Of a DNA stretch of 28,919 nt, positions 5,006-28,632 are shown piece after piece. How positions within the stretch are numbered: the first letter of the stretch is position 1; each line of letters starts with the position of its first letter. A program made the translations under genes and the position numbers. Origin of the DNA: Folioceros fuciformis (lineage: Eukaryota); the NCBI GenBank assembly GCA_049999805.1, contig JBNGIO010006373.1, positions 160,231 to 189,149 of the forward strand, read 5' to 3'. Below the pieces are notes generated by a model. That model worked only from the letters and a program-made list of their open reading frames with translations. It had not been told where the DNA came from and ran no database searches.

Positions 5006-6529
5006 ATGGGTTCTGATCACCCACTAGAACTGCAGGTCACTCTGCTCGGGGAGCCTGAGCTGGTAGTGCCTGCAGAACCAGTCAAGGAGAATCAGGGCGA
5101 ATTCTTCCTCAGCAACCTGGACCAGAACATTGCCGTGATGGTAGAAACGCTTTACTTTTTCCAGGCTCAGCTGCCACAGCCTCACATCTTGCCGGTTCCA
5201 GAGGACGACCCCAACACCGCACCTGGTAACGGAGATAACCACGACGGTGCAACAGAGAATGGCGACATAGCAAAGCGGAAACCTGCTGTCCCGAAGCGGC
5301 ATCCAGACCCGGCTCGTGTGCTCAAGGACGCCCTGGCTAAACTCTTGGTCTTCTACTACCCGGTCACAGGCAGGCTGGGCATCAGCAAGGAGGGAAAGCT
5401 GGACATCAAACTCACAGGAGATGGCGTTGTGTTTGTGGAGGCCGAGGCAAACCTGTCCCTGGCCGAGCTCGGCTATGATGTGAGCAAACCGAATGTGCAG
5501 GTGAGCAAGAAGCTGGTGTACGCTGTTCCTGGAGCCGCCAACATTCTTCAGATTCCGCCGATGGTCATCCAGGTGAGTGTAAGAGCTTGCTAGGCCATGT
5601 TTTAATACGTTCCATGCTCCAAGTCTTCACACCGTGTGCGTGATCTGAAGGTGACCAAATTCAAGTGCGGGGGCTGGGTGCTGGGACTGAGCAACAACCA
5701 CTGCCTGTTCGATGGCGTCGGCGCCATGAACTTCGTCAACTCCTGGGCAGAGCTGGCCCGAGGGGAGAAGGCCTTGAGCGTGTCACCAGTCCTGGACAGG
5801 AGTATCATCCGGCAGCGAAACCCTCCGGAGATCAGATATCCGCACGGTGAGTTCGCGGAAATCGAAGATCTCTCCGAAGAGAAGAATCTACTGCTCCAGG
5901 ACGAGGGCTTGGAAAACGCCTTCTTCTGGTTTACGGCCGACGAATTGGAGGCTCTGAAGAAGGCAGCGAGTGTTGAGGAGACAGTTTCTCCAACCGCCAA
6001 GGTCACCACCTTCGAGAGCCTGGCAGCGCACATCTGGAGAGCTCGTACTCGAGCTATGGGCATGAAGGGGGATCAGCTGACAAAGCTCCTCTTCGCAGTG
6101 GACGGACGCAACCGCCTGGAACCTCCTCTTCCCCAGGGCTTCGTCGGCAACGGAATTGCACTGGCGTACGCCACAACCACGTCCTCGGAGCTGACACAGC
6201 GCCCGCTGTCCCACGCTGTGGGGCTGGTGAAGGACGCCATAGCCATGATCACCGGCGACTACATCAGATCCGCCATTGATTTCTTCGAAGTGACCAGGGC
6301 GAGGCCGGCTCTGGTGGCAACACTGGTGATCACCACCTGGTCACGGCTGGAGTTCCACACCACCAATTTCGGGTGGGGTGAGCCAGTGCAAACGGGTCCT
6401 GCTAATCTCCCGGAGCGTGAGGCCGTGCTGTTCCTCTCACACGGGACGGAGAGGAAGAGCATAAACGTGCTCATCAGCCTGCCGCCTGCTGCGATGGATA
6501 TTTTCAGGCAAGAAGTCCGCAAATTATGA
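5006..6529 (+). CDS. ASFT: BAHD acyltransferase, ASFT/HHT1 (aliphatic suberin feruloyltransferase)-like; exons 5006-5572 and 5651-6529
   Basis: FFLSNLDQNIAV, HCLFDGVGAMNFVNSWAELARG and ITTWSRLEFHTTNFGWGEP..LPEREAVLFLSHGTERKSINVL closely match the ASFT/FACT/DCF clade as I recall it. 78-nt intron 5573-5650 (CAG|GTGAGT ... AAG|GTG) is at the Q-intron site. An AG just upstream of the ATG (4998-4999) could indicate a further 5' exon. Confidence 0.9.
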
Positions 6530-7834: not shown

Positions 7835-8810
7835 GACTGCTCCTCTCGACCAAAGAGATAGCCTCGGCTTGAACGTCCTCCCTCACGTGCTCCCGAAGCC
7901 ATGGATCCCGGGGCCCTGGACACCCGTGATTCTACAGCACAGACAGCTCCGGGCTGCCGCTCATCACACCACAAACCGTAGACAAACGAGCGGGAAATCT
8001 CCCTCTGGCACCCGTCATACCAGCTAGCTACAGCGAGGAAGCAAGAAACTCGACAAACGTCTCAGACAACACAAGCAAATCGGCACATTGCACGACTGCC
8101 ACGGTGCAGGCAAGGCACTAGCCAATTCCTATGTCGCCGGGAAAGGCAATCGAGGGATAGGGGCGGGTAGCGGGCAGCCGGCGAGACGAAGTCACGATCG
8201 CCGCGCAGAAGCCTTGTCAAATGGGCTGGCCGAGCAGTGGCAAAGACGGGCCCGCCATGGATACATGCGGCAGACCGCCACGGCCCGTACCACTTGCCTC
8301 CCAGATCAGATGCTTGGGCTACAAGTCAAAAGGCTTTGGGAAGGCGGTACGAAGCGGGCGACGAAGGCGGGGCGAACCCCACCTGCCCCTTCCTTCTTTT
8401 AGTTTCCGTTTCGTGTCTGCAAACTCCAGATAAAAAGAGAGACATTCTTTGGTGAGAGCGTGTGTTGGCATGAGATGGGACGTCACCACTCACGCCAAGA
8501 TTTATTTCGTTTCGGGCAATGCGTACAAGACATCCCTATCTTTAAATTCTCGTTTACCTATCTGATAATAAGACGTAAGTAATACGTAGTGGGGAAAGAA
8601 ACAATGGAGACAGCCAACTGGTACCAATGTTGGAGCTCATCACACAAGTCACTAGCTTGGTAACTTGGGCAAACATGTACCAACTTGCCTTATTAGATCT
8701 AAAATCCCTTAGACTAAGGACCTAAGAAATTCTAGGGATGCCAAGGACGGTCTTGCCCCTACTGGGTCAAGTGTTGAGGACTGTTCTGCCGCAGCTATGT
8801 CAAGTGCTAA

Positions 8811-9870
8811 GAACTGTCCTATATTTTGTATGATATTATTATGGAACAGATTTTGCTGCGATTACTAACTACATTCCAAGTTTGCTGCCATTCTGTCTCC
8901 AAGGAGTGGCATGACATGGTCACAAATGCAAGATTTCATCGGCGGAGCTTTCTCCAAGGATTGAAGGCGTGCGTCGCATGACCACACCCATGCTATGTAG
9001 CCTTGTATTACAGCACGAGTGGGATTACCCTTCTGCTATTTGGGGGATTCGTGGTTCTAATCACTTTCATAGGACACAATTGCAGAGCTGGGACAAGGTT
9101 TTGAAAGTGCACCTATTTTTCCTACCAAACGTATTTCAGTCTGGTTTTTGTATTGTCTATTGATGTCCTAGATCAATGTCTGGTTTCATATCCATATACC
9201 ACAAGAAATCCTCGGGAATGGTGGTATGTGTAATGAATCCGATGAACCAAAGTTTCAAACTTCTATCCATACTTCAAGATTATTATAGCGAGGATACAAG
9301 CAGTGCACCAAGCTTTGCAACAATAAAGGTTTCCAACTTCAAGGTTTCAGTGAGAGATGTAGGAAGGACACCTTATGTGAGCAAGAGTAGTCTGATGTCA
9401 AAGTCACGCTTTCCATGAGTGTGCCATCTACAACAGCATGAACAGGAAGTGGAAGGGCTTCAGGTATAATTTTTATGCAGTTTTCTCCTGCGATGGAGAG
9501 CTATATGCATTGGTTCATCTCCTTTGCCCTTGCATAGTGCAACTTAATACAGAAAGCGGTCTAAGGTATTCATGGGATCTAAAGTTTCCTCGAGACTTGT
9601 CTCTATTGAGGGATGTTCCGATTTATATATGGTAGCTTACCATGTAGAGCTCCTATGGTGCTCAGATGGTATTTGGCAATTGGATGATGCCAGGCAAAGG
9701 TGGATTAGAATTGCAAGCAATTGACCACCTTCCTTATTTTCACTTACCTCTTTTACTGGCTTAGAAATGTTGCTGCTTGTGTAGGTTGCCGGGAACTTCA
9801 TGATGTTTTTATTCCAACTAAGTCCTTCTTTCGGGTGGATGTAATTGTGGCTTATGACTTGCTCCGACTC
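8811..9870 (+). pseudogene. Decayed F-box protein (F-box plus plant beta-propeller/FBA-like C-terminal fragments)
   Basis: 8826-8981 reads LYDIIMEQILLRLLTTFQVCCHSVSKEWHDMVTNARF (F-box consensus), bounded by stops at 8808 and 8979. Downstream frame-shifted fragments include HLFFLP, VVCVMNPMNQSFKLL, DGELYAL, GIWQLDDARQRWIRIAS and VIVAYDL. Confidence 0.72.
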
Positions 9871-10731
9871 TCAATTCTTAGCATGGGCACTTTTATCACC
9901 CTATGCCAAATTTGTTTCTTTGAGACCAAGCTATTGTATATTTGTATGTCAAGCAATTTGTTTCTCTTGTGGACAAACTCCCGGAGTTGGTGTACAAGGT
10001 GGGGGATGCAACTTGGTGTCACACCGGAGCGTAATATGATGGTAGATTAGCAATGAGCTAGAGGGACATATCTAGGCTGTTGTTCATGTGAACAGGATTC
10101 TGTTGTCGTGATTGTCGCTATCGAAAGTTTGTACACATTCTGAAACTTAAAACATATCACTTCCAAGGCTAACAGCAGTTGCCCAACATTTTCTTTCCTG
10201 CCCCTAATGGAGTGACAAGTTTTGCTTATACAGATAGATGCTTAGCTGCATGTCATGCACGAAAATCTGACTACGGCTGCCGGACTCTTGCAAATTCTCC
10301 TGCTCGGGACTTCTGAGCAGGAAGTTCGATGTTCCATGGCTGGAGTCTCACGATCGTAGAGCCGCAGAGAGATGCTCTCGGATGGCTATGTCAACCGCTC
10401 GTAAAATTTGTTTCGGCAGGTGGAATGGCGGGACGTTTCTGTGCAATTGGGTTGTGGATCCTGCCAGTAACGGACCGGAAGTTCGAGACGCATTCTGTTC
10501 TTCTGCTGATGGTGCTGCATCTTCCTCAATTCGTTTCTGGACTGGTTGGTCCGTCTTTGAATCGAAGTGCAAAACGATGATATCGTCTACGAAGAGCTGA
10601 AGAGTTTACTTCACTGAGAGCGAGGCTTTGACAATGTAGCTATCTCCCCTGCCCTGGGGTCTTGACGAAATTCAACGTGCTTCAAGACACTCAGATATCT
10701 GCAGTCCGGTGCAGGACAGACGGTATGTCCT

Positions 10732-13461
10732 TTGCAGTCCACGGCTGTCTGCAGCGTTGCAATCGAGTCACGGAGAGGGCAACAGGATCGGCTACGGGGA
10801 CAGGTTTTCGGGACCCTGCGTGGTGGTGGTTTACCATGTCTTAAAGGAAAAGCTTCTTCAGCTCGCTTGGCCTCAAGAAACCAACCGTTGGCAAACAAAG
10901 GAGTCACCAGGAGCAGCACCTGTGCAACACAGCCTCGGCCTATGCGATGTGTGGCTGCTCTGCATATGCAGATAGGTTGTAGCTCACCTGCAGAAAACGG
11001 AATGGGCATAACTTCTGAGACCGTAAGCAAGCTATGTCAGCAGGGCCAGCTCAGTCAGGCTGTCGAGGCTCTGGGAGTCCTGGTGCACGTAGACAGTTAT
11101 ATACCCAAAGCTGTCTTCTATACGGTTCTCAAAGGGTGTTTAGCTCAAAATGATGGACCTCTGGGACGCCGTGTTCATGCTCTCAGCGTGAAGAAAGGGC
11201 TTGAGTCGGACACGTTCTTGTGCAATCACTTCCTGCGGATGTACGCTTCTCATGCCAGGCTACAAGAAGCGGTGGATGTGTTTTACATGGTTGCCACACC
11301 CGATGCTTTCATGTGGTCTTCTATCATTTCTGCGCATGTGAAGCATGGCCAATATGCACAGGCCATACAACTGTATCATGGGATGCGCAGATCTGGTGTG
11401 AAACCAGATGGCCATGTGTTCGTAGCAGCACTTCAAGCTTGTGCAAAGGGCGCAGATTTGATATCTGGGCAGAAGGTGCATGCTGATTTTTTGGATAGTG
11501 ACGTTGAACGTGATATGTTTATTTGTAGTTGCTTGGTGGACATGTATTCAAAATGCGGCAGCTTGGATGCAGCGAGAAGAGTGTTTGACGGGCTTGTTCA
11601 GAAAAATGTGGTAACTTGGAATGCCATGATCTCAGGATATTCCCAGCAGGGCATGGGTCAGGAAGCCCTTTGCCTTTACCGTGCTATGCAAGAAGAGGGA
11701 ATAGTTGCACCCAATTCTGTCACATTCGCATGCGTGCTGCAGGGATGTGCAAGTGTGGGTGTCTCGGCTTTGGGAACGGGGATGCAGATTCATGCTCAAA
11801 TCAGGGAAGAAGGGCTCGAAGCTCATGTATTTGTAGCCAGCAGTTTGGTAAACATGTATGCAAAGTGTGGCAGTTTGGAAGACGCTGAAAGAGTGTTCAA
11901 CGGACTTGACAAGAAAAATGTGGTGACGTGGAGTGCCATGATAGCAGGATATTCCCAGCAAGGCAAGGGACCGGAAGCCCTTGGTCTTTATAGTGCTATG
12001 CAAGATGAAGGGCTTGTTGCACCCGATTCTGTGACATTTGTGTCCCTGTTGCAGGCATGTTCAAGTGTGGGCGCTCCTGCTTTGGACATTGGAAAGCAAA
12101 TGCATGCACAGATGAGGGAACGAGGTTTTCAGGACGATGTTTTTGCAGCCAACAGCTTGGTAAACATGTATGCCAAGTGTGGAAGCATAGAGGATGCTCA
12201 GCGTGTGTTTGGTAGGCTTGGCCAAAAGAATGTAGTCTCGTGGAATGCCATGATAGGAGGTTACTCCCAGCAGGGTATGGGGCACGAAGCCCTTCGTCTT
12301 TACAGGGCTATGCTGGATGAAGGCATTTGTGCACCGGATTCTGTGACGTTTGTATCCCTCCTGCAGGCATGTGCAGGAATTGGAAACGCAGCTTTGGAGG
12401 AGGGAAAGCAGCTTCATGCACAAATCAAAGATAGTGGGCTTCAGGCTAATGTGTTTGTAGCTAATAGCTTAGTCAACATGTATGCAAAATGTGGTAGCCT
12501 GGAGGATGCCCAGGTTGTGTTCACTGTCCTTGGTCAAAAGGATGTGGTGACATGGAATGCCATGATAGCTGGGTATTCCCAGCAGGGCTTGGGGCAGGAC
12601 GCCCTTCGTCTATACAGGGCTATGGAAGAAGAGGGCTTGGCTGCACCTGATTCTGTGACTTTTGTCTCCCTCCTGCAGGCATGTGCAAACGTGGCAGCTT
12701 TGCACCTGGGAAAGCAGCTTCATGCACAGGTAAAACAAGAGGAGCTTCAGGCTGATGTTCTTGTAGCCGGCAGTTTGATAAACATGTACGGAAAGTGCGG
12801 TAGCATGGCTGATGCGCAGCAGGTGTTTGACGGATTACCTAGAAGAGACATGGTCGCCTGGAGCGCACTGATAGCAGGATATACGCGTCAAGGGGACAGT
12901 AACAAGGTCTTTGACTTAGTTCGCAGAATGCGCGAGGATGGTGTACAGCCAGACGGCATCACTTTCCTCAGTGCATTAACAGTCTGCGGCCACACGGGCC
13001 TGGTGAGCGAGGGGCGAGAGTACTTTGAGGTTATGAGCAGACAGTACAACATCATTCCTAGTCCGGACCACTACTCATGCATGGTGGGTCTCCTGGCTCG
13101 TGCAGGACTACTGGACGAGGCACTAGCTTTAGTAAAGACAATGCCTGTCCAGCCTACTGCTGCAGTTTGGCACACTTTGCTGGGTGCTTGTCAGAAGTGG
13201 AGCAACGTGGAGTTGGGACGCTTTGCTTTTGAGGAAACCGTGAAGCTGGCCAAAACAGATCCCGCAGCATATGTGTTGATGTCGAACATATATATCAGTG
13301 CCCAGATGTGGGAGGAAGCACGGGAAGTGCAGGCGAGGAGAATAGAAATTGGGGCATGGAAGCAGCCAGGACAGAGCTGGTGGGCAGACATGGATGGACT
13401 GGTGCACAGTTTTTTGGTGGGGGAGAAGATCCGTTCCGGGAGCGAATCGAAGGTGAATTAA
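10732..13461 (+). CDS. PLS-class PPR protein 1: 20 PPR motifs + E1 + E2 + WW-type PG box, no DYW catalytic part (organellar RNA-editing specificity factor)
   Basis: Repeated L/S/P motifs (SVTFVSLLQAC / SSLVNMYAKCGS / VVTWNAMIAGY), terminal P2-L2-S2, E1 AAVWHTLLGACQKWSNVELG, then QPGQSWWADMDGLVHSFLVG and stop. Start uncertain: the ORF begins at TTG 10732 and the first in-frame ATG is 10942. Confidence 0.95.
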   Translation: MQSTAVCSVAIESRRGQQDRLRGQVFGTLRGGGLPCLKGKASSARLASRNQPLANKGVTRSSTCATQPRPMRCVAALHMQIGCSSPAENGMGITSETVSKLCQQGQLSQAVEALGVLVHVDSYIPKAVFYTVLKGCLAQNDGPLGRRVHALSVKKGLESDTFLCNHFLRMYASHARLQEAVDVFYMVATPDAFMWSSIISAHVKHGQYAQAIQLYHGMRRSGVKPDGHVFVAALQACAKGADLISGQKVHADFLDSDVERDMFICSCLVDMYSKCGSLDAARRVFDGLVQKNVVTWNAMISGYSQQGMGQEALCLYRAMQEEGIVAPNSVTFACVLQGCASVGVSALGTGMQIHAQIREEGLEAHVFVASSLVNMYAKCGSLEDAERVFNGLDKKNVVTWSAMIAGYSQQGKGPEALGLYSAMQDEGLVAPDSVTFVSLLQACSSVGAPALDIGKQMHAQMRERGFQDDVFAANSLVNMYAKCGSIEDAQRVFGRLGQKNVVSWNAMIGGYSQQGMGHEALRLYRAMLDEGICAPDSVTFVSLLQACAGIGNAALEEGKQLHAQIKDSGLQANVFVANSLVNMYAKCGSLEDAQVVFTVLGQKDVVTWNAMIAGYSQQGLGQDALRLYRAMEEEGLAAPDSVTFVSLLQACANVAALHLGKQLHAQVKQEELQADVLVAGSLINMYGKCGSMADAQQVFDGLPRRDMVAWSALIAGYTRQGDSNKVFDLVRRMREDGVQPDGITFLSALTVCGHTGLVSEGREYFEVMSRQYNIIPSPDHYSCMVGLLARAGLLDEALALVKTMPVQPTAAVWHTLLGACQKWSNVELGRFAFEETVKLAKTDPAAYVLMSNIYISAQMWEEAREVQARRIEIGAWKQPGQSWWADMDGLVHSFLVGEKIRSGSESKVN

Positions 13462-13805
13462 GTCATGAAGGATACGGGCCACATCGGGACTCCTCACTGG
13501 CCACTATATCTGACTGGATAGCGCTCGCGCCTGCGATGGCTGGTTGCTGACGGATGTCTAGGAGCTGGGCAAATATCCAATGTTTATGTGCGGCTGAATC
13601 TCGCTCCTCATTTCTCCGGACTTCAGGCAAGTTCTACATCGGTTGCCTGGTTCGGAGGCTCAGGCTGTTCTTGTACGATCCCGTCGCTGGAGGGTTGCAA
13701 TTGAATCACACCGAGGCATAGGAGATCCTAGACATTTTGTGCGGACGCGACAAAGCGCACACAAACTAGGAGGACGACAAGCCTCCACTTCAAGGGAGCA
13801 ACGAT

Positions 13806-16115
13806 GTGCGAAACAGAAATGCCCCGAGGGGCAGCTGCTTCTCAAGAAAGCCGGTCTGTGCAGGGGAATGTCCGGCTGTAGACGGATTTCCAGGTGTTCG
13901 CCAGATGCTCTCGTGGCGGCAAGGTGCCGTGGGTCATCGAGCCCCAAGAGTCAACAAGCCTGCAGGATTGGAAAGGGGCGTGACGTCTGGAAGCGTGAGG
14001 AAACTTTGTGAGCTGGAGCAGCTATTTGAGGCCGTGGAGGCTCTGGGAGTTTTGGTGCACAAAGACTGTCCTTGTCCGAACTCGCTATTTTATGCCGTCC
14101 TGAAAGAATGTGCGGCGAAGAAAGATCTGGCTCTGGGTCGCCGTGTGCATGCCCTCAGTGTGAAGAAGGGGTACGAGTCGGACACGTTCTTGTGCAACCA
14201 TTTCCTGCGGATGTATGCGTCTCATGCCAGAATGCAGGAAGTCATGGACGTCTTCACGTCAGTTGCCCATCCAGATGCCTTCATGTGGTCTTCCATAATT
14301 TCGGCACATGTCGAACGCGGTCAAAGTGAGCAGGCTTTACAGCTATATCATCGCATGCGCAGCTCGAGTGTGAAGCCTGACGGGCACGTCTTCGTATCAG
14401 CGCTTCGGGCTTGTGCATCGGCAGCGGACTTGGAATCTGGGCAGCTGGTGCATGCTGATGTGTTGGCTTATGGGCTTGAGAGCGATACATTTGTTTGTAG
14501 TTCTTTGATAGACATGTATGCAAAGTGCGGCAGCTTGCTCGACGCTCGAAGATTGTTTGATGGGGTTGCTGAGAAGAATGTGGTGACATGGAATGCCTTG
14601 ATTTCTGGATATTCCCACCAGGGCATGGGTCAGGAATCCCTTCATCTTTATGGTGCTATGCAGGAAGAAGGCATAGCTGCACCCACTTCGGTTACATTTG
14701 CGTGCCTCTTGCAGGCATGTGCAAGTCTGGGCCCTGCGGCTTTGGAGAAGGGAAAGGAGCTCCATGCTCAAATTAGAGAACGAGCACTTGAAACCAATGT
14801 GTTTGTAGCCAGCAGTCTAGTGAACATGTATGCAAAATGTGGCAGTTTGGAGGACGCCGAACGGGTGTTTCATGGCCTTGGTCAGAAAAATGTAGTGGCG
14901 TGGAGTGCCATGATAGCAGCATACTCGCAGCGGTGTATGGGGCAGGAAGCCCTTGGTGTTTACAGTGCGATGCAAGAAGACGGCATTGTTACACCCGATT
15001 CTGTAATTTTTGTGTTCCTCCTGCAGGCATGTGCAAGTCTCGGTACACCGGGTTTGGGGAAGGGGAGGCAGCTTCACGCACAAATAAGAGAGCTGCGGCT
15101 TCAGGCTGATACGTTTGTAGCCAACGGCCTGGTGAACATGTATGCAAAGTGCGGCAGCATAGAAGACGCTGAAGCAGTGTTTGGCAGTCTTCATGAAAGG
15201 AATGTGGTGTCATGGAATGCCATGATAGCCGGTTACTGTCAGGAGGGCAAGGGGCAGGAGGCCCTCGGTCTTTACCGTGCCATGCAAGAAGGAGGTTTGT
15301 TTGCACCTGATTCCGTGACATTTGTCTCCCTGTTGCAGGCATGTGCAGATGTGGCAGCTTTGGGGCTTGGAATGCAACTTCATACACGGATTAAAGACCA
15401 GGGGCTTCAGACTGATGCGGTTGTAGCCCGGAGTCTGATACATATGTACGGAAAGTGCGGAAGCATGGTTGATGCCCAAGAGGTGTTTGAGGCATTGGCA
15501 GAGAGAGATGTGGTGGCCTGGAATGCTCTGATTGCAGGATACCATCGACAGGGAGACTGCGAGCACGTCTTTGACTTGTTCCTCAGAATGACAGACGATG
15601 GCATACAGCCAGATGGTATCACATTCCTCAGCGTCCTTCCAGTATGCAGTTATGCAGGTCTCGTGAACAAAGGGCAAGAGTACTTCGAAGCTATGAGCAC
15701 ACACTACAGCATACCTCCCACAGTGGACCACTACTGCTGCATGGTGGATCTCCTGGGTCGTGCAGGAGAAGTGGAGGAGGCACTAGCCTTAGTGAGAACA
15801 ATGCCAGTACCGCCGAACACCTTGATTTGGCACACACTACTAGGTGCTTGTCGAAAGTGGAGCAACGTGGAGGTGGGACGTCATGCTTTCGAAGAAGCAA
15901 CGAAAATGGACAAGAAAAATGCTGCAGCGTATGTGTTAATGGCGAACATATACGCTGGTGCCCAGATGTGGGAGGGAGCTCAGCAGATTCACGCAATGAG
16001 AATAGGAGTCGGAGCTTGGAAGCAGCCAGGCCGGAGCTGGTGGACAGACATGGACGGAACTGTGCATACTTTTCTGGTTAGGGATAAGCAGGAGCCACCC
16101 AGTGTCGAAAGCTAA
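13806..16115 (+). CDS. PLS-class PPR protein 2: 17 PPR motifs + E1 + E2 + WW-type PG box, no DYW catalytic part
   Basis: Paralogue of PPR1 with one fewer L-S-P triplet; ends QPGRSWWTDMDGTVHTFLVRDK. The ORF begins at GTG and the first in-frame ATG is 13905. The upstream leader is frameshifted relative to PPR1. Confidence 0.92.
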   Translation: MRNRNAPRGSCFSRKPVCAGECPAVDGFPGVRQMLSWRQGAVGHRAPRVNKPAGLERGVTSGSVRKLCELEQLFEAVEALGVLVHKDCPCPNSLFYAVLKECAAKKDLALGRRVHALSVKKGYESDTFLCNHFLRMYASHARMQEVMDVFTSVAHPDAFMWSSIISAHVERGQSEQALQLYHRMRSSSVKPDGHVFVSALRACASAADLESGQLVHADVLAYGLESDTFVCSSLIDMYAKCGSLLDARRLFDGVAEKNVVTWNALISGYSHQGMGQESLHLYGAMQEEGIAAPTSVTFACLLQACASLGPAALEKGKELHAQIRERALETNVFVASSLVNMYAKCGSLEDAERVFHGLGQKNVVAWSAMIAAYSQRCMGQEALGVYSAMQEDGIVTPDSVIFVFLLQACASLGTPGLGKGRQLHAQIRELRLQADTFVANGLVNMYAKCGSIEDAEAVFGSLHERNVVSWNAMIAGYCQEGKGQEALGLYRAMQEGGLFAPDSVTFVSLLQACADVAALGLGMQLHTRIKDQGLQTDAVVARSLIHMYGKCGSMVDAQEVFEALAERDVVAWNALIAGYHRQGDCEHVFDLFLRMTDDGIQPDGITFLSVLPVCSYAGLVNKGQEYFEAMSTHYSIPPTVDHYCCMVDLLGRAGEVEEALALVRTMPVPPNTLIWHTLLGACRKWSNVEVGRHAFEEATKMDKKNAAAYVLMANIYAGAQMWEGAQQIHAMRIGVGAWKQPGRSWWTDMDGTVHTFLVRDKQEPPSVES

Positions 16116-16219
16116 GCTGTTTCTGCAAGGCAAAAAGTGTGTGTCATGCAGGACAGTCGTCGCAGAAAGAAGTCAAAATCGGATTGTCACGATATGACCC
16201 GACCTCCGCGCCTCCTGCC

Positions 16220-16399
16220 ATGTCGGAGTCCTTGCACGGCTGCGTGGAGTTCCGGCTGGCCATGGGGTCCGGGGAGCGCGTCCTAGGGCTGCGGATCGGC
16301 ACCCCAAGCAGGCTCCCTGCCCTGACTGTGCTCACCGGCAGCTTCCTGAAGTGGCTCCAGCAATCCTTGCAAAGACTTTATTCACGAGCAGGAGTTTAG
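16220..16399 (+). CDS. Possible 59-aa small ORF or captured exon fragment of unknown family
   Basis: GCCATG start; 43 of the first 47 codons end in G/C, unlike the flanking PPR genes. No motif recognised. Confidence 0.3.
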   Translation: MSESLHGCVEFRLAMGSGERVLGLRIGTPSRLPALTVLTGSFLKWLQQSLQRLYSRAGV

Positions 16400-17112
16400 A
16401 GACCGGACTAAATAGAAGCTGGAGTTCCTGTTCTCGTCTCTGGCTGCGATTGCCGTCCAAACATTCTGGTTACGTTGTCTCACTGCTCTGCTCTGCTCTG
16501 GGTATGAAAGGTTTAGGGTTCAGCAGGTGAGCCACCCACGACGACTAACCAGTAGAGCCCACCAAACTCATTGTTATGACTTGTTGAATAATTATATATA
16601 ATAATGTTGCATAGATTGTAGTTCTCAACAAGTTCGTTGTGGATGCAGCTCATCATCATGGTGCCTTTCTACCTGTCGGCGATCCCAAGTTCTCGTGCAC
16701 GGTGACGGGACTTCGGCGTGCTTGGTGGTTGATCTATTTCAGTTTCGAATGCTCTCAGAACTTGGAATGGATGTGGTTGCATGGAGCAAGGCATGGAGCA
16801 TGGAGTCCTCCATCTTCACCTTCATATGTTTACGGATGGAGGAGGAGTGGTGGCCTTCAATGCTGCGACCTGTGTGTGCCTTCTGTGGGAATGGGCACAC
16901 ACCGGTTCCTTGGTTGGTGAAGTCCAGCTGAAGCGAAGCAAGTCCTTCTCCAGCATGGACTGGTCACTGGCAGACATGCTGGAGCATGGAAGGGGATGTC
17001 GTCTGTCTGTCCAAGGGAAGAAGCTTACTGTGGGATGTGCCCTACGCTCCATACTCTTGGTGAAAGACGTGCCGGTCTTGGTTGATTGCCTCTTTTGTGC
17101 CGCCTACCTGCC

Positions 17113-19605
17113 ATGGCTGTCCGGAGGTTGAGAGGTAGTCTTGGACGAACCTCGGTTTATCCGGTTTCGAAGAAGCAAGAGTTGGCTCAAACCAGAAAGG
17201 CAGCCAATGCTAGAGATGGATCCTCCAGCAAGGGTGGTTGCCAGGAGCCGCCGTGCCGACAGTTGTATGAGGAGATCACACGTCGGTGGGATGACAGGCA
17301 ACGAAAGAAGAAACCCCGTTCGGTAATTGGTTTCTCGCATCTGGAGTCCCTGGGGGTTCGTCAGGCGGACGTGCAGATGGGTACTCCGTGTGTGGAGAAT
17401 GGCCGTTGTGCCCCTTCACCACCCACATGGAGCGTGCCGTATGATGGTTCTGGGACTCGTGGGCCTGCGGGATACGGGATGGGCGTGGCTGATAATTCGG
17501 TGAGCCAATTGTGTCGGCGGGGGCAGCTCTCTGAGGCCGTTCAGGCCCTTGAAGCTCTGGTGCTCATGGACTGTCGCATTTCGAAATCCGTGTTTTACAC
17601 TGTCATCAAAGAATGTGCTGCGAGGAAGGATCTGCTTTTGGGTCGCCGTGTGCATGCTCTCAGCGTGAAAACAGGGTATGGGTCGGACACGTTCTTGTGC
17701 AATCATGTCCTGCGGATGTACGCTTCTCTTGGTCGGCTGCAAGAAGCCGTGGATGTGTTCAATGGGGTCACCGAACCGGATGCATTCACCTGGTCTGCCA
17801 TGATATCTGCACAGGTTCAGTATGGACAAGATAAGCATGCCGTACAACTGTATCGTCGTATGCGGTTGTCAAGTACGAAGCCTGATGGGCATGTGTTTGT
17901 AGCAGCGCTTCAGGCTTGTGCAAAGGGATCAGACTTGAAGTCTGGGCAGCTGGTGCATGCTGATGTGCTGGCTAGTAGCGTGCAGCCAAGTATGTTTGTG
18001 TGGAATTGCCTGGTGGACATGTATGCAAAATGTGGCAGCTTGGAAGAGGGGCAGAGAGTGTTTGACGGACTTGGTGAGAAGGATGTGGTGACATGGAGTG
18101 CATTGATAGCAGGATATTCCCAGCAGGGAATGGGGCATGAAGCTCTTCGTCTCTACAGGGTGATGCAAGAAGAAGGCACGGTGGCACCCAATTCTGTGAC
18201 GTTTGTGTGCCTCCTGCAGGCATGCGCTAGTGTGGGTTCCACAGCTTTGGAAAAGGGGAGGCAGCTGCATGCACAAATCAAAGAACTAGGACTCCAAGGT
18301 CGTGAAAACATATCTAGCAGTTTGGTAAACATGTACGTGAAGTGTGGCAGCTTGGAAGAATCTCGAACAGTCTTTGGCGAACTTTCCCAGAAAGATGTGG
18401 TTACTTGGAGCACCATGATAACAGGATATTCGCGGCAGGGAATGGGGCAAGAAGCTCTTAGTCTTTATACTTCGATGCAAGAAGACGGGATAACTGCACC
18501 CGATTCTGTGACATTCTTGTGCCTCCTGCAGGCTTGTGCAAGTGTGGGCACTCCAGCCTTAGAGAAAGGGATGCAGCTTCATGCACAAATAAATGCACAA
18601 GGGCTTCAAGGTGATGAGGCTGTAGCCAGCGCTCTAGTAAACATGTACGCAAAGTGTGGCAGCCTTGAGGATGCGAAGGGTGTTTTTAATCTACTTGATA
18701 AAAAGAATGTAGTGACATGGACCGCACTGATAGCAGGATATTCTCAGCAGGGCATGGGTCAGGAAGCTCTTCGGCTCTACCTTGCTATGCTGGAAGAGGG
18801 CAACGCCGTACCTGATTCTGTTACTTTTGCATGCCTCCTGCAGGTATGTGCGAACGTGGCAGCTCTGCATTTAGGAAAGCGGCTTCATGAACAGGTTAGA
18901 GAACAAGGACTTCAAGCTGACGACGTCGTAGCCAGCAGCTTGATAAACATGTATGGAAAGTGCGGTAGCATGGTTGATGCACAGCAGGTGTTTGATGCAC
19001 TGCCTAAGGCCAATGGGGTAACCTGGACTGCTCTCATTGCTGGATATACTTATCAGGGACACAGTGAGATGGTGTTTGAATTGGTTCGAAGAATGAGGGA
19101 GGAGGGAGTACAGCCAGACACGGTCACATTCCTCAGTGTTCTTACAGTATGCAGTCATACTGGTCTAGTGGCCAAGGGACGAGAGTATTTTGAGGCTATG
19201 AGCAAACAGTATGGCATCACACCCGAGGTAGACCACTATACGTGCATGGTGGACCTCCTGGGCCGTGCAGGCCAACTAGACAAAGCACTAACTTTGGTCA
19301 CAACTATGCCTGTACTGCCCAATGCTTCTGTGTGGCACGCTCTCTTGGGAGCTTGTCAAAAGTGGGGGAACGTAGAGGTGGGACGACACGCGTTCAACGA
19401 AGCAGTAAAGCTGGACAAGAAAGATGCCGTAGCATACGTGTTATTGTCGAACATCTACTCTGGTGCCCAGATGTGGGAGCAGGCACAGGAGACACAGGCC
19501 AGAAGAAAAGGGGTTGGGGCTTGGAAGCAGCCAGGGCAGAGCTGGTGGGCGGACATGGACGGACTGGTGCATGATTTTCAGGTTGCCGGTTACGTACTTT
19601 CGTGA
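17113..19605 (+). CDS. PLS-class PPR protein 3: 17 PPR motifs + E1 + E2 + WW-type PG box, no DYW catalytic part
   Basis: GCCATGG start with an Arg/Ser-rich N-terminus (MAVRRLRGSLGRTS, organelle-targeting-like). Same motif architecture as PPR2; ends QPGQSWWADMDGLVHDFQVAGYVLS. Confidence 0.95.
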   Translation: MAVRRLRGSLGRTSVYPVSKKQELAQTRKAANARDGSSSKGGCQEPPCRQLYEEITRRWDDRQRKKKPRSVIGFSHLESLGVRQADVQMGTPCVENGRCAPSPPTWSVPYDGSGTRGPAGYGMGVADNSVSQLCRRGQLSEAVQALEALVLMDCRISKSVFYTVIKECAARKDLLLGRRVHALSVKTGYGSDTFLCNHVLRMYASLGRLQEAVDVFNGVTEPDAFTWSAMISAQVQYGQDKHAVQLYRRMRLSSTKPDGHVFVAALQACAKGSDLKSGQLVHADVLASSVQPSMFVWNCLVDMYAKCGSLEEGQRVFDGLGEKDVVTWSALIAGYSQQGMGHEALRLYRVMQEEGTVAPNSVTFVCLLQACASVGSTALEKGRQLHAQIKELGLQGRENISSSLVNMYVKCGSLEESRTVFGELSQKDVVTWSTMITGYSRQGMGQEALSLYTSMQEDGITAPDSVTFLCLLQACASVGTPALEKGMQLHAQINAQGLQGDEAVASALVNMYAKCGSLEDAKGVFNLLDKKNVVTWTALIAGYSQQGMGQEALRLYLAMLEEGNAVPDSVTFACLLQVCANVAALHLGKRLHEQVREQGLQADDVVASSLINMYGKCGSMVDAQQVFDALPKANGVTWTALIAGYTYQGHSEMVFELVRRMREEGVQPDTVTFLSVLTVCSHTGLVAKGREYFEAMSKQYGITPEVDHYTCMVDLLGRAGQLDKALTLVTTMPVLPNASVWHALLGACQKWGNVEVGRHAFNEAVKLDKKDAVAYVLLSNIYSGAQMWEQAQETQARRKGVGAWKQPGQSWWADMDGLVHDFQVAGYVLS

Positions 19606-20016
19606 ACAAATCAAAGCCGAGACAGTGGTTCTAAGGTGCATCAGGGCCGAAAGAGGGAGTCTCGAAGGTGCAGTACCAAGACATGTACTGTTTGTCGTGC
19701 ACGAGCTTTCACACGCATGCCAGATGGCCAAGACTGCGGCCACTAGGTTTCCGGGACATCCACCATCGGCAACCCTAGCGTGTACGAGATGCGTTCCATC
19801 TGAGGTTGTGCATCCAAAATTAAATAAGAAGCCCCGATTCGAAATAAATATGCCCTGAGGAAACCTGAGCGATATTCCCCTGCGGAGAGTGCTGTATATG
19901 GTCAACTTTCGGTCCGAGCACCTCAGTCGTTTTAGGTGTGTACATACCTGGTTAACGTGGTCTGCATCGGATCCCGTCGGAGCGTTTCGGTAGGGTTGAG
20001 CTGGGAATGTCAAGAG

Positions 20017-21387
20017 ATGGGGGAGGCTGAAGACCAAGCCGAGTACAATGCGGGGTACTTGGCTGTGATCGATGTGGAACGTCCTCCCTCTCGGCGCTAC
20101 CATTTCCACGCTCAGTTCACGCAGCCTGAGAAGAAAGGAAAGCCAGCCAACAATTTTCTGAAAGGGGTGAAGTGGGCTCCAGATGGCTCCGGCTTTTGCA
20201 CTTGCAGCGATGACAACAGTCTCCGGGTTTTCGATCTCCCAGCGGATGTCATTGCCCACGCGTGCGTGGAAGATGCGGCAGCAGCTGGTCAAGACTCGTA
20301 CTGTGCCGCCTTGAGGATCCAGGAGGGGGAGACCGTGTATGACTTCAGTTGGTACCCTGGAATGACTGCAGCAGATCCTGCAAGCTGCCTCGTGGCAAGC
20401 ACCAGCCGTGATCATCCCGTGCACCTCTGGGATGCTGTGTCGGGTGAGCTTCGGTGCAGCTATCGAGCCTACGATGCCATGGATGAAATTGCGGCTGCCT
20501 ACTCCGTTGCTTTCAATTCAGCGGGGAATAGAGTATTTTGCGGCTACAACAAGATGCTTAGGGTCTTCGATGCATCCAGGCCTGGAAGGGATTTCGATGA
20601 GTATTCCACGGTTAACAAGAGCAAAGATGGACTGCGGGGTATTATATCGTGCCTGGCGTTTAATCCCTATCAACCAGGGGTGCTAGCAGCTGGCTCGTAT
20701 AATCGGACTACCGCATTGTATGCGGAGGATAATGCGGAGCTGCTCTTTGTGCTTCATGGACAGGAGGGTGGAGTTACTCAGGTTTTGTTTTCCAAGGATG
20801 GAAACTACCTGTACACAGGAGGCAGGAAGGACCCGAACATTTTGTGCTGGGATGTTAGGAACACGGCTGGAGTTCTGTACAAGATGCCGAGAGTAGCTGC
20901 AGAAACCAACCAACGTATTGCTTTTGATATAGAATCGTCAGGAAGGTATTTGGGGACTGGAGGTCAGGATGGTCTGGTGCATGTGTATGATCTCCAAACA
21001 GGTGCATGGGTGACGAGTTTTCAAGGAGCTCTGGATACTGTGAATGGATTCTCATTTCATCCGACGTTACCCCTTGCAGCATCCTGTTCGGGACACCGCA
21101 GATTTGCACTTGATACGGCGGATGATGAAATTGAGAAGGGTGGTTCTGTCACGGTTGTTGAAAACTGTGCGTCTGTTTGGCAGTTCGAGTGGATGTGGCA
21201 GGCGGTGAGTTATGAAGGGTTAGAGTCAGAGCTGGCGACGACTCCTACCAGCAACAACATGCAGGAGGATCGAGATAACAATGGAGAATTTTATGCTTCC
21301 TCAGAGCACACTGCTACTCTGAGCACTTGTGAGCAGCAGCTGCTCGAGGATCCTGGTAGTCTGGTGGCTGTAGAAGTTGTGCAGTGA
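20017..21387 (+). CDS. WRAP53: WD40 protein WRAP53/TCAB1 (telomerase Cajal body protein 1), single exon
   Basis: NNFLKGVKWAPDGS, EGETVYDFSWYPGM, TSRDHPVHLWDA..GELRCSYRAYDAMDEI, VFDASRPGRDF, LYTGGRKD.ILCWDVR, TNQRIAFDI and NGFSFHP.LP.AASCSGHRRF are WRAP53 signature segments. First ATG is 20017. Confidence 0.93.
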   Translation: MGEAEDQAEYNAGYLAVIDVERPPSRRYHFHAQFTQPEKKGKPANNFLKGVKWAPDGSGFCTCSDDNSLRVFDLPADVIAHACVEDAAAAGQDSYCAALRIQEGETVYDFSWYPGMTAADPASCLVASTSRDHPVHLWDAVSGELRCSYRAYDAMDEIAAAYSVAFNSAGNRVFCGYNKMLRVFDASRPGRDFDEYSTVNKSKDGLRGIISCLAFNPYQPGVLAAGSYNRTTALYAEDNAELLFVLHGQEGGVTQVLFSKDGNYLYTGGRKDPNILCWDVRNTAGVLYKMPRVAAETNQRIAFDIESSGRYLGTGGQDGLVHVYDLQTGAWVTSFQGALDTVNGFSFHPTLPLAASCSGHRRFALDTADDEIEKGGSVTVVENCASVWQFEWMWQAVSYEGLESELATTPTSNNMQEDRDNNGEFYASSEHTATLSTCEQQLLEDPGSLVAVEVVQ

Positions 21388-22553
21388 TAGGATCCCGCTG
21401 GCACCACGTATGCTGGAGTAGCTGCCATCGTTGGCGTGGTGCTTGCATTCTTCGCGAGCTTCAGACTCCGATCCTGGTAGGTATAGTTCTACCAACATCC
21501 CTGGAGAAGCTGTTTTGGGCTTGGTGCTTGGTGTTGACTGCAGAGATTGAGAAGCATGCTCTGTGTTTGATGGTACAGAGTATTTGAAGGAAGGAAAAAA
21601 GAAACATTGAGGTGAAGCTTAGACGGGGATCCATCCTTTAGATCATGGACGTCTCAGGATCGGTTGTCAGGGTCTGCCTTCGAAATTGCCCAGGAGCTCC
21701 GAATCCTGGACAATAATGGACATCGGGAACTAATTTTATTGATCGAGTATGACAAGTGCTTCATCCTTTTTCAAAGTGCTAGTGAGTACCAGGTCTGACT
21801 CTAACCCCTGATAGCTCATTGGCCTCTAAAGCCTAGCGTGGTAGGCTCTGCGGCTGGACCGAACCTGGCCCACCGCACACAATATTCCAGAGTTGCAGTG
21901 GGTTGTCACGCCAATTGGTTGCTAACTGCCATGGTTGTCGCGACTAGTGTCTTCAATCTGGCACTTTCTTCCAGGATTTGGCTGGCATCCTTTGGGGATC
22001 TGAACTCTCTTTCAATTCTGAGCGCACTTCTTTCCGCAATTCTTCAAGCAGCTATGTTAAGTGTACCTTAAACTGCCCACCGTGACAGTGAGTCTACGGG
22101 CTGACGCTTGTTGCGGATCTAGAGCCACAACAGAGTAGGAAAATCAAGGTCGTGATCTTGACAGACATTTAATCCCTGCGAGGGCCTGTCATATTTCGCC
22201 GTTGGTGTACACGTGCCTGAGGCTCACCACGCGCTTGCGACCACAAACCTTGCATGCCCGTCGGCGGCACATCCTTTGAGCTCCACAACACCGGCGATCG
22301 TGGGAGCCTCTGGACAAATTTGGAGCGGAATATCGTCGAAAGAGAGTATGAGAAATGTTTCAGAACGGGTCACGTAGGGTATCGGGTTAAAAAAGACATC
22401 TCGGCTGGTAAAGAGTTCTCTTCCCCGTGTCACGAGCGTCCTCTGTGTCGTACTAGTTGCGATCAGGTGCACAGCGCAGCGCAGTGCAGGGCCCCCGATC
22501 CGGGTCTTTTGGAGGCGGAGTGATCATCCAGGGCATACGTCTTCAGCTCCGCC

Positions 22554-23368
22554 ATGGCGGATCCGAACTCTTCTTGGATTGGGTCGTTGAAGTACCTCTC
22601 GCCCTACTTCTACGCTGCGATGGGGATTGCCCTCTCCATCGGGGTCTCAGTTTTGGGAGCAGCGTGGTAAAATCCAGGGTCTTATGCTGGCTGGCTCGCT
22701 TGGCTCAAGATCGGAAATGGCCAGTTTTCTGACTGTGCTGGCGTTCTGCAAACAGGGGGATGCTCATAACTGGCAGCAGTCTGATTGGTGCTGCCATCAA
22801 AGTCCCACGGATCACTTCGAAAAATCTGGTCAGGTAAGGACGTGCACAGGATTTTGAGTCCTCGTGAATGAGGGCAACTGTGTCACTTCCCTTCCCTTTC
22901 CTTGCCTCCGATCTGACATAGTGCGCGTTTTGCAGTGTGATCTTTTGTGAGGCAGTTGCTATTTATGGTGTCATCGTGGCAATTATTCTGCAAACAAAGT
23001 TGGAGAGTGTCTCAAGCGAAAACCTATACCTTCCAACATCAATGCATGCTGGCTTTGCGATATTTGGCTCCGGCCTCATCGTGGGGCTGGCCAATTTGGC
23101 GTGCGGGTATGTATCACCGGGAGGGGGTGCATTTTCGTTTTCTTGGCTACTGACAATCAGCAGTCTGGTAACCATGTTGTGGTTGTTTGGCAGAATTTGT
23201 GTAGGAATTATTGGCAGCAGTTGTGCCTTAGCGGATGCTCAAAATTCAACCCTCTATGTGAAGATTCTGGTCATCGAGATCTTTGGCAGTGCCTTGGGTC
23301 TGTTTGGTGTCATTGTCGGAATTATTGTGTCCTCCCAAGCACAGTGGCCAACCACAGCTGTTAGCTGA
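22554..23368 (+). CDS. VHA-c'': V-type H+-ATPase proteolipid subunit c'' (VMA16/ATP6V0B-like), 178 aa; exons 22554-22666, 22756-22833, 22936-23106, 23194-23368
   Basis: Spliced product MADPNSSW...[48 protein letters not shown]...[26 protein letters not shown]. Three GT-AG introns (89, 102, 87 nt) are all phase-consistent; total 537 nt. Confidence 0.96.
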
Positions 23369-23956
23369 GCTTGAAGGTGGATCAGTGTGGAAGAAGCTTT
23401 CGTCATGGTATAACAAACAGTTCAACAGAATTTTACTCAGGCTTTCCTATATCAAAGTCCTTCTCATATGCCGAGCTCAGTGGCCACATGTCTACATCCT
23501 CTGCCATGAACTCCCCGAAACTTTAATGGACTCGGAGATGGTTAATCGTGATGTTGTGTCGTTGCAGATTTGCGTGGCAGCAGTGGGGTTGGCAGGACTC
23601 GAAGCCGCAGCGAAGATAATGCTGAACGCGATGCTTGGCAGTTTCTTCTTATCTCTAACTCAATCGTAGACACTTCAAAATCTGAATTCTCTGCTTGAAG
23701 GGCCTACTGGCAAAGAGAAATCTGGCAGTTGCCTTAGGATTTTGTCGCAGTCGTCGGAACCATGTCCTTCCAAGCAACATTCCCAGCCTGCCATAGCTCT
23801 AGTCTTCACGGAGTAGCTGAAGGTCATACTAAAGAAGTCTAGCTAACAAAGTTTGTACTCTAGCGAGGTGTGTTTTAGTACATGCCCCACCGGTGTGAGT
23901 GGAGTGTCGGGCAGCTCCTCAATTGTGGCCGGAAACCGAATTGCGCCCCCGTTGAG

Positions 23957-26937: not shown

Positions 26938-28632
26938 TCAGGATGGGCAAGGACAATGTGAGACTTTCTTGTGCTGCCATTGTGGACGTTGAGCCGCTTT
27001 GTTAGCCTGTGACTGTATATAGGATCGAGCATATGAACGCTGGATGCAGAGCACAAAACTTGTCAGGAGGACAGGCCAACTCCGCTAAACACTGGTACGC
27101 AAGCGTTGCGCCTAGAACCTACCTTGCAGGCATTATTCTGGTAGTAGGCATCATGAACTTGCTCCAAACGTCGGCAAAGCTCAGCCCTCATCTTGGCTTC
27201 TGTATGTCTCCAGCCCCTCTCCCTGTTAAAAATTTCTTCTGCACCACAGGGGACCACCATTATTCAGCAGGGGGTTACGTAATGGTACAAAACGAGCAAA
27301 GAAAAGAAACAGGAATATATAAAAGCCTGGTCCTGCTGCCAAAAACCTAAGACACAGGATCAAGAAATCTTGAACCGTCTGAATCCAAGGACAGGTGCAG
27401 CGCAAGTTTGTAGTAGTACCTTGCAAATTCTTCATTTCCTGGTCCGAGCTGCAGTCGACATGGCTTGGACAGCGTATGTTGCAATAGCATTTTCGGTCCA
27501 TCTGCCTGTGGGAGGAAGTGTTGTTGGAGCATGATGTGCATTCATCCACTCGAGTAAGTGGAGACGATTGACCATATGTCCTGCTTAAACAGGAACCAAA
27601 TCTGGGGGCGCTGTCGCGTTTAGGCGGCGATCTCTCACTCAACCGCTGTGGTGAAAGGCAACAACTCCGAGATGGTGAAGTATCTCGCTTTTGCGAAGGG
27701 GGCACGCCCCTTCTAAAAGTTGGTGAGTTTCCACGTTTTCGCGATGATGAAGGTCTTGCATCTTGTTCCTGTTTACGAACTGCTATCGGGTTTGCCATCC
27801 TGCCCCCGGGAGTAGTGATTCGACTCGTTTTGGGAGACTCTGCAAAGTGCGCAGTTTTGCCCCCAACCTTCGAGTGTGGCCCAAGCTTTGGAGAGGAGTG
27901 ATCAGGCGAGGAACAAGGTTTGCTAGAACTCGCTTTGGATGTTGAGGGACAGGGTTTGGAGAGGACCGGGCAGGGTTTGGAGAGTACAGGACAGGGTTTG
28001 GAGAGTACAGGACAGGGTTTGGAGAGCACCGGGCAAGGTTTGGAAAGGACGGGACATGGTTTGGAAAGGACGGGACATGGTTTGGAAAGGACTGAACATG
28101 GTTTGGATAGGACTGGACATGGTTTGGATAGGACAGGACATGGTTTAGATAGGACAGGACAAGGTGTAGACAAGACAGGACATTTCGGAGACAAGAGGGG
28201 ACATGTCGGAGATGAAGGTGTGGTGTTTGCTTCACTTCCTTGCATCTGTAGAGTAAGCCATCCACGGAGTCAACATGCTAACATTACCACAACCCAATTA
28301 AACAATATGTTTTCTTCAGACCGCCATTCAAAAGCAACCAGATTTGCGAATATTTCACTTCAGCGGCAACATACCTTACTACGAGGAGAGTGGTATGTAC
28401 AACTCGTAGGGGAGGCGAGGGCACCACATGTATCTATTGCACGTCAAGAATGTCAGGATTCCTCCATGAAAAGCCCGTGATCAAATCTGCCCTAGAATTT
28501 TATCACTGGGAGCTCATGCTGAAAAAGAATCTTACCATTCTCGTACAGCTCGTTTGTGAACACATCCATACATGTGGAGCGCTTTATGCAAGCATCACGC
28601 TCTGCTTGAGATATGGTTCTGGTTTCAAGCAT
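26938..28632 (-). CDS. Unrecognised 399-aa Cys/Pro/Ser-rich repeat protein; exons 28632-28536, 28433-28375, 28245-27420, 27238-27123, 27039-26938
   Basis: Four GT-AG introns (102, 129, 181, 83 nt; donors GTAAGA, GTATGT, GTACTA, GTAGGT) join in phase to a 1200-nt stop-free frame. An in-frame stop lies two codons upstream of the ATG. Repeat variation is synonymous on this strand. Confidence 0.8.
27947..28198 (-). repeat. Coding 21-bp tandem repeat, about 12 copies, encoding (KPCPVLS)n
   Basis: Plus-strand unit GG[A/G]CA[G/A/T]GGTTT[G/A]GA[G/A/T]AG[G/T/C]AC[N]; the last two units (28157-28198) are degenerate. Confidence 0.95.

Follow-up and report, generated by a model that had tools for sequence, protein, structure and literature searches.

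Three tandem PLS-class PPR genes of the hornwort Folioceros fuciformis with a WW-type PG box and no DYW deaminase

In angiosperms, pentatricopeptide repeat (PPR) editing factors of the E+ type recruit DYW2 in trans (preprint 10.1101/2024.01.16.575875; PMC7076377). The factor CLB19 requires DYW2 together with the scaffold NUWA, and CRR28 becomes dependent on DYW2 when it is cut to an E+ form and on DYW1 when it is made 14 residues shorter (preprint 10.1101/2024.01.16.575875). Bryophyte editing is usually presented as the work of one protein (PPR-DYW), with the separation of guide and enzyme seen as a later, vascular development (preprint 10.1101/2024.01.16.575875; PMC10482289). Here we describe three tandem PPR genes, genes 1 to 3, of the hornwort Folioceros fuciformis, located on contig JBNGIO010006373.1 of the GenBank assembly GCA_049999805.1. 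The window, as we call the whole stretch of 28,919 nucleotides that was analysed, comprises positions 160,231 to 189,149 of the forward strand of this contig, and all coordinates below count from its first letter. The genes encode PLS-class proteins with E1 and E2 motifs and a PG box of the WW type, which end before the catalytic core of the DYW domain.

Related proteins and arrangements have been described. An enrichment of E+ proteins in hornworts has been reported (Mol Biol Evol 2026), as have tandem clusters and an expansion of the PLS class in Anthoceros angustus (PMC7027989), and a DYW:WW subclade is described from hornworts, lycophytes and ferns (PMC12684383). MORF proteins are reported from seed plants only (PMC13386178). 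A first reading of this DNA, made from its letters alone and below called the sequence-only reading, had referred to both the recruitment of DYW2 by angiosperm E+ proteins and to a WW variant of the DYW domain in hornworts and ferns; the literature agrees with the former, and for the latter PMC12684383 names such a subclade, with lycophytes in addition. Conserved and expressed guides without a deaminase in a hornwort would mean that the split between guide and enzyme arose more than once, and three genes with RNA codes of their own, as predicted, would be a defined set for testing what supplies catalysis. A current guide-free RNA editor derives from the WW branch (PMC12684383), so that a natural supply of that branch's deaminase in trans, if true, would also be of practical interest.

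Architecture, selection and transcription of the three genes

The three genes correspond to open reading frames arranged in tandem on the forward strand (10666-13461, 13770-16115 and 17086-19605), each of which is open upstream of its first ATG (Table 1). PPR families of Pfam match all three predicted proteins with 207-327 bits, and motif segmentation resolves the arrays into triplets of P (35-36 residues), L (35-37 residues) and S motifs (31 residues), as is characteristic of the PLS class. Behind the array, E1 and E2 are present in all three proteins, as in the E+ subgroup of this class, with scores of 49.5, 50.1 and 52.1 bits for the Pfam E motif PF20431 (cut-off 27.3). The DYW deaminase family PF14432 is found by Pfam in none of the three.

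The E2 motif is followed by a common box of 21 residues, GAWKQPGxSWWxDMDGxVHxF, in which WKQPG and PGxSWW are kept in all three proteins. Between the copies the box is 81-95% identical, compared with 65-70% across the whole shared region. From the last F of the box to the stop codon (TAA, TAA and TGA) there are 15, 13 and 8 codons in genes 1, 2 and 3, respectively, and this tail is unconserved among the copies. As the boxes read KQPGxSWW and retain the PG, the proteins do not belong to the U-to-C type DYW:KP (named in PMC9478123), which we take to have a KP-type box in place of PG.

A hidden Markov model (HMM) built from 12 WW-type DYW domains was run over the window in all six reading frames (57,834 residues, with X for stops). 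Four matches were obtained, the three boxes and one weak relic. The box of gene 1 aligns to model positions 1-32 (20.7 bits), that of gene 2 to positions 1-46 (25.6 bits; 16017-16154, running through the TAA of gene 2) and that of gene 3 to positions 1-24 (14.7 bits), and thus each protein ends in a DYW stub with a PG box and without the catalytic core, which is the feature of E+ proteins. The HxE(x)nCxxC core occurs neither in the three proteins nor anywhere else in the six frames of the window. The sequence-only reading had described the locus as three tandem PLS-E1-E2 genes whose proteins have a PG box of the WW type and lack the deaminase, had seen no HxE..CxxC core behind the boxes, and had stated that the copies diverge at once behind the box and stop within 8-16 codons. 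Pfam and the HMM bear out this description, and the similarity between the copies does end just past the box; the coordinates that it had given for the boxes (13363-13383, 16023-16043 and 19528-19548) are exactly the QPGxSWW core of each.

The DNA of the copies is 72-76% identical between 10987, 13959 and 17464 at one end and 13428, 16088 and 19584 at the other, and unalignable past that. Over 699 shared codons, ratios of nonsynonymous to synonymous divergence (dN/dS, NG86) of 0.186, 0.210 and 0.218 were determined, with dS values of 0.93-1.0. Taken by part, the ratio is 0.15-0.22 for E1-E2 and 0.06-0.32 for the 21 codons of the box, and frames of 736-839 codons have remained open despite a DNA divergence of ~25%. 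The PPR array, E1-E2 and the box are therefore shown to be under purifying selection in all three copies, and a relaxed dN/dS, which the sequence-only reading had named as speaking against it, is not observed. The similarity stops behind the box because the constraint ends there; at a dS of ~1, unconstrained flanks would be unrecognisable.

Genes 2 and 3 are transcribed. The evidence comes from run X3, which is from the same organism as the DNA runs containing the window and for which the matches listed were evaluated. It was treated as RNA because its contigs lack GT..AG introns, such as 23406>23567 and 21476-21577, of the adjacent V-ATPase and WD40 genes, and a DNA contig of run X1 (23134-23880) reads straight through the first of the two. 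Exact X3 contigs cover 13630-13968 and 15134-15767 for gene 2, and 16645-17919 and 19463-21475 for gene 3; these two genes are hence not unexpressed, which had likewise been named as an argument against the sequence-only reading. The last of these contigs (19463-21475 joined to 21578-22145) crosses the box and the stop codon of gene 3 unspliced. Such a contig, which spans two genes, is no proof of a single transcript but shows that RNA and genome run colinear where gene 3 ends. For gene 1 no exact X3 contig is among the matches listed, and next to no X3 depth is seen at 8534-10669; neither was used as evidence. Within the PPR repeats, X3 cover is swamped by paralogues, and the depths there (hundreds to thousands) add up paralogous contigs and do not represent copy numbers.

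The residues that determine base preference, the 5th and the last of the P and S motifs, were compared across the three genes. The codes read ND SD SN NN SN SD NN ND ND ND GD SD for gene 1, ND SD SN NT SN SD NN ND RD ND for gene 2, and SD ND SN SD SD SN TD SN TD for gene 3, in which the first S motif is unsegmented. Over the first eight motifs, the codes of genes 1 and 2 are identical or almost identical (ND SD SN NN/NT SN SD NN ND); toward the E motifs they differ, and the code of gene 3 differs from both at most positions. As the specificity residues differ between the copies, the duplicated guides probably now read different RNA sites. Gene 1 also contains one P-L-S triplet (104 residues, ~12230-12541) more than genes 2 and 3, a change of repeat number within the RNA-binding array.

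Descent from WW-type proteins and traces of the DYW domain

With the C-terminal 212 residues of gene 1 as query, PLS proteins of ferns (Adiantum, Ceratopteris) and lycophytes (Diphasiastrum, Selaginella) were found, together with many others at up to 65% identity. In several relatives the box is followed by a complete deaminase; among them, P0016 and P0023 share the PGQSWWTD box and continue into an intact HSE..CxDC..(D/N)(F/Y)W domain, and P0016 reads ...PGQSWWTDLNGTVHGF...HSEKLA...CEDCH...GDFW. Because this SWW box precedes a complete HxE..CxxC DYW domain in such close relatives, the window proteins are E+-type truncations of the DYW:WW subclade. The WW box is present in 29 of 381 collected proteins (window trio excluded), 18 with HxE..CxxC and 11 cut 36-151 residues after the PG, in a sample that is biased, as two of the three underlying searches used the truncated protein as query.

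A tree was calculated from 32 rows, namely 29 WW-box proteins with at least 200 residues upstream and 3 PG-type outgroups; P0124, P0125 and P0147, with their short upstream parts, and one outgroup that did not pass the filter were dropped. The window trio forms one clade (96/91), sister to the short-tailed P0021 and P0043 (88/73), and these five belong to a group of 14 rows, of which 12 are truncated and 2 are full. A separate WW clade of 13 rows consists of full-length proteins throughout. The truncated state requires ~4 changes on the tree (3-4 in bootstraps), of which well-supported branches force only one. As judged from the box and from the grouping with WW-box proteins apart from the 3 PG-type outgroup rows, the window proteins are shown to descend from DYW:WW-type proteins. 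Neither the HxE..CxxC of a complete deaminase nor the C-terminal DYW-like triplet is present in them, and they count as derivatives of the subclade rather than as domain-bearing members. In this assignment the published 'WW' is equated with the SWW box by inference; the published definition of the subclade is phylogenetic.

Traces of the lost part of the domain can be recognised behind gene 2 (Table 1). The sequence that continues in frame behind the TAA still aligns to the DYW model, and the fourth match of the HMM, the putative relic of a decayed DYW core, lies further downstream, in the transcribed leader and the start of gene 3. It has QGK at the HxE positions and LVDC at the CxxC positions. 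In a shuffle control, 9 of 300 locally shuffled windows scored as high, and only 2 shuffle hits also spanned at least 60 model positions; in tblastn, seven different query tails align at the relic in the same register. Pfam gave no match on the ORF of the relic (16733-17128). Since model positions 1-46 and 44-129 adjoin, both pieces may stem from one decayed DYW domain of gene 2, split by ~770 bases and now located in the leader of gene 3, an interpretation with moderate support. Behind gene 1, the stretch ELSHEGYGPHRDSSLATISD remains below the threshold of the HMM and is only suggestive of a DYW remnant. The decay of the relic is compatible with a loss of the deaminase before as well as after the local duplications.

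Some further candidates were discarded. 'PDFRQVLHRLPGSE...' (13616-13699) was rejected as a DYW remnant of gene 1 since it is homologous to the leader of gene 1. The motif GTTGCAAT.GA.TCAC occurs at 10756 and at 13694, and a faint homology links the leaders of these two genes, 1 and 2; the duplicated unit therefore extended upstream of the coding region. A second WW box at 'MFTDGGGVVAFNA' (~16830) is unsupported, as the HMM alignment begins at model position 44, and 'VSKVQYQDMYCLSCTSFH' (19659-19712) behind gene 3, with tblastn E values of 1.3-9.8 only, was treated as chance. A candidate intron lies between genes 2 and 3 on the forward strand (16527-16648, CAG/GTGAGC ... AT-rich ... TGCAG/C, with slashes at the splice points). 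The X3 contig that starts at 16645 has 1594 bases, 1275 of which are placed; the other 319 may be located upstream of this intron, and if so, the leader of gene 3 begins close behind gene 2.

Table 1. Positions of the three genes, of their C-terminal motifs and of putative DYW remnants in the window
Feature	Position	Strand	Description and evidence
Gene 1	10942..13461	+	PLS-PPR with E1-E2 and WW box; 839 aa counted from first ATG
Gene 1 E1-E2 motifs	13165..13350	+	PF20431, residues 845-905 of P0001
Gene 1 box	13351..13413	+	WW-DYW HMM match; alignment to 9kfx
DYW-like stretch behind gene 1, ELSHEGYGPHRDSSLATISD	13455..13514	+	Frame-shifted, resembles DYW residues ~53-72; tblastn E 0.32 against P0016; tentative
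Gene 2	13905..16115	+	PLS-PPR with E1-E2 and WW box; 736 aa counted from first ATG
Gene 2 E1-E2 motifs	15825..16010	+	PF20431, residues 697-757 of P0002
Gene 2 box, GAWKQPGRSWWTDMDGTVHTF	16011..16073	+	WW-DYW HMM match
Continuation behind gene-2 TAA	16116..16154	+	In-frame, still aligns to DYW model; HMM match 16017-16154 and tblastn
Putative decayed DYW core relic	16928..17167	+	Model positions 44-129, 0.4 bits; one in-frame TGA
Gene 3	17113..19605	+	PLS-PPR with E1-E2 and WW box; 830 aa counted from first ATG
Gene 3 E1-E2 motifs	19330..19515	+	PF20431, residues 761-820 of P0003
Gene 3 box, GAWKQPGQSWWADMDGLVHDF	19516..19578	+	WW-DYW HMM match

Genes in the window are dense and their introns short (87-160 bases). 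Directly behind gene 3, a homologue of telomerase Cajal body protein 1 (WD40) is encoded at 20017-21475 and 21578-22145 (+); its intron 21476-21577 is missing from the RNA contig that extends over the end of gene 3. The best named relatives of this homologue (20017-21387) are from mosses and liverworts (Physcomitrium, Ceratodon, Sphagnum, Marchantia; 59-65% identity), and the best match overall has 67%. Taken together with the WW-type PPR genes, these bryophyte-level matches, the gene density and the intron lengths would by themselves point to a hornwort. It is followed by a V-ATPase proteolipid gene (subunit c, PF00137; 22421-23785, +) with four GT..AG introns (22665>22755, 22830>22933, 23105>23193 and 23406>23567), which show up as junctions in the RNA contigs of two runs, X3 and, from another organism, X8. 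At the other end of the window, 339-2281 and 4979-6529 (+) are two tandem BAHD-type acyltransferase genes (PF02458), each consisting of two ORF pieces split at profile positions ~111-139 and 136, which indicates that an intron or a frameshift lies at the split. At 27940-28105, short peptide-like repeats in tandem (RVWRGPGRVW / FGKDGTW) gave tblastn noise, and the ORF overlapping them on the reverse strand (27229-28245) has no match in Pfam. Between 11200 and 19700, thousands of short contigs from runs of other organisms (X4 and X8) fall on the PPR repeats with 90-99% likeness; the DNA of the PPR motifs of this family is therefore highly similar across related species.

Possible role of the deaminase-less proteins

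We consider it rather likely that the three genes are old tandem duplicates of an E+-type PLS PPR gene and encode site-recognition factors for organellar RNA editing, with the deaminase coming from another protein. The components of this interpretation are not equally firm: that the genes encode functional truncated DYW:WW (E+) proteins is very probable, while for editing through a deaminase in trans, which is argued by analogy, the chances appear evenly balanced. Each protein would bind an organellar RNA target of its own via the P and S repeats and bring the target cytidine to the DYW deaminase of another protein, since the window proteins cannot deaminate. A short DYW protein dedicated to this purpose might act as the donor, or else a full-length PPR-DYW paralogue, and the retained end formed by E2 and the box might complete the deaminase fold of the donor or position the RNA. 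Such a two-component system, for which the sequence-only reading had proposed many WW-type guides, a separate catalytic donor and the retained box as docking site, would be a reasonable analogy to angiosperm E+ proteins and DYW2. E+ stubs have been suggested to restore, possibly, the gating domains of DYW1 and DYW2, which are deviant (PMC7611903).

Several points weigh against this interpretation. In public collections, to which the search for donors was confined, none was identified; the short DYW-only matches there come from other organisms and are mostly fragments: of 33 proteins with at most 250 aa, 30 start with M, mostly an apparent internal Met of PPR-DYW genes on short contigs. Domains of the WW type act in cis and cofactor-free in human cells (PMC12684383). 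The DYW1-like donor subfamily is called an innovation of vascular plants (preprint 10.1101/2024.01.16.575875), and a bryophyte donor system would therefore be independent. Contact with the RNA is as good a reason as docking for the retention of the box: in PPR56, editing drops strongly when K555, the lysine that precedes the PG box, is mutated, and this lysine possibly touches the nucleotide that is edited (PMC7611903). In addition, the share of truncated relatives is biased by the choice of query, and the N-termini of genes 1 and 2 are short when counted from the first ATG, which makes these starts and the targeting peptides provisional. A literature search, with Gutmann 2020 and Gerke 2020 outside it, found no paper describing a trans-acting deaminase or donor in hornworts. 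One short protein, P0209 (97 aa, on a Logan contig of 6320 bases), consists of the DYW core only ('MKKQGYVP' to DYW), without PG box or PPRs, and is 73% identical to P0016; it may represent either part of a frame-shifted gene or a deaminase piece that stands alone.

Selection and expression prove a function of the proteins but not which one. RNA binders that stabilise, process or translate an organellar transcript, or that block or tune an editing site, would need no deaminase, and the lack of a donor among the matches as well as the unconserved tail behind the box would fit such a non-editing role. However, E1-E2 and the deaminase stub, which are editing parts in the studied proteins, are as constrained as the PPR array, and the PLS class is described as predominantly dedicated to editing (PMC13386178), which makes this role a rather unlikely one. 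As a variant of the preferred interpretation, the proteins may serve in editing with E2 and the box using the first beta-hairpin and the lysine that precedes the PG to position the RNA, and with the deaminase provided by a nearby full-length PPR-DYW paralogue or via a scaffold. The effect of the K555 mutation, the position of NUWA between E+ proteins and DYW2 (preprint 10.1101/2024.01.16.575875) and the conservation of WKQPG in the three boxes argue for this variant. A two-stranded hairpin without a sheet would, however, be odd to conserve unless it is paired with something, and the data do not separate RNA positioning from docking; taken by itself, we regard the variant as unlikely.

The loss of the deaminase, the possible DYW remnants behind genes 1 and 2 and the dead core at 16928-17167 could also be explained by decaying pseudogenes that arose from tandem duplication of a PPR-DYW gene. 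With a dN/dS of ~0.2 at a dS of ~1, intact frames and exact RNA contigs for genes 2 and 3, this is very improbable. Hardly credible is an artefact of the gene models, in which the mRNAs would be spliced near the ends of the ORFs to a DYW exon, as the sequence-only reading had considered for its own refutation. A donor-like AAG/GTGAAT is indeed present at 13452/13453, the RNA contigs leave the 3' end of gene 1 unresolved, and one X3 contig departs from the window sequence at 13427. However, no intact DYW coding sequence exists in any frame of the window, gene 2 begins ~450 bases past gene 1, and the stop codon of gene 3 is crossed by unspliced RNA. The departure at 13427 was rejected as a splice, as it is followed by GA where a splice donor would have GT; since Logan contigs may jump from one paralogue to another, a paralogue or assembly switch is the more likely cause of this loose end.

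Beyond the locus itself, it is conceivable, if doubtful, that hornworts evolved a split editosome of their own, independent of that of seed plants. WW-box guides, as a large class maintained by selection, would repeatedly have shed the deaminase, a DYW donor so far overlooked would act in trans, and the WW hairpin would complete the sheet of the donor; the targets of the trio would already have diverged.

Comparison with described editing systems

The window proteins resemble angiosperm E+ factors such as CLB19 and DYW-less CRR28 in having a PLS array, E1-E2 and a DYW stub with a PG box and no HxE..CxxC. They differ from them in that the box is the WW variant (PGxSWW compared with PGxSWIE) and in that they occur in a bryophyte, while DYW2 and NUWA are known from the angiosperm system. 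CRR4 and DYW1 of Arabidopsis combine a deaminase-less PPR protein with a short catalytic DYW protein, as is proposed here (preprint 10.1101/2024.01.16.575875; PMC7611903). CRR4-like proteins end in a 'half E+', 14 residues shorter than E+, and this difference decides between DYW1 and DYW2 (preprint 10.1101/2024.01.16.575875).

With the DYW:WW subclade, the basis of RECODE-WW, the trio shares the box, which is found in the full-length proteins P0016, P0023, Selaginella P0127 and others, and it groups with these proteins in the tree. The published WW consensus domain, in contrast, is a complete, cofactor-independent C-to-U deaminase, whereas the window proteins end 8-15 codons after the first two strands. 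The same truncation is apparent from a solved structure: E1-E2 and the PG box of gene 1 align to residues 406-499 of the synthetic PPR-DYW chain 9kfx/9kfy (E 1.8e-18), which runs on to residue 612 (~110 more) with the whole deaminase, where the gene 1 protein ends.

The genes fit the E+ subgroup counted in hornwort genomes (Mol Biol Evol 2026). That study is a census, which credits the expansion of PPR genes mainly to dispersed duplication, and in the parts of it that were available no account of selection, WW type, donors or tandem arrays was found. The class and its abundance in hornworts are thus already in print; to these the locus adds purifying selection, expression, WW ancestry, a putative decayed DYW relic and diverged codes.

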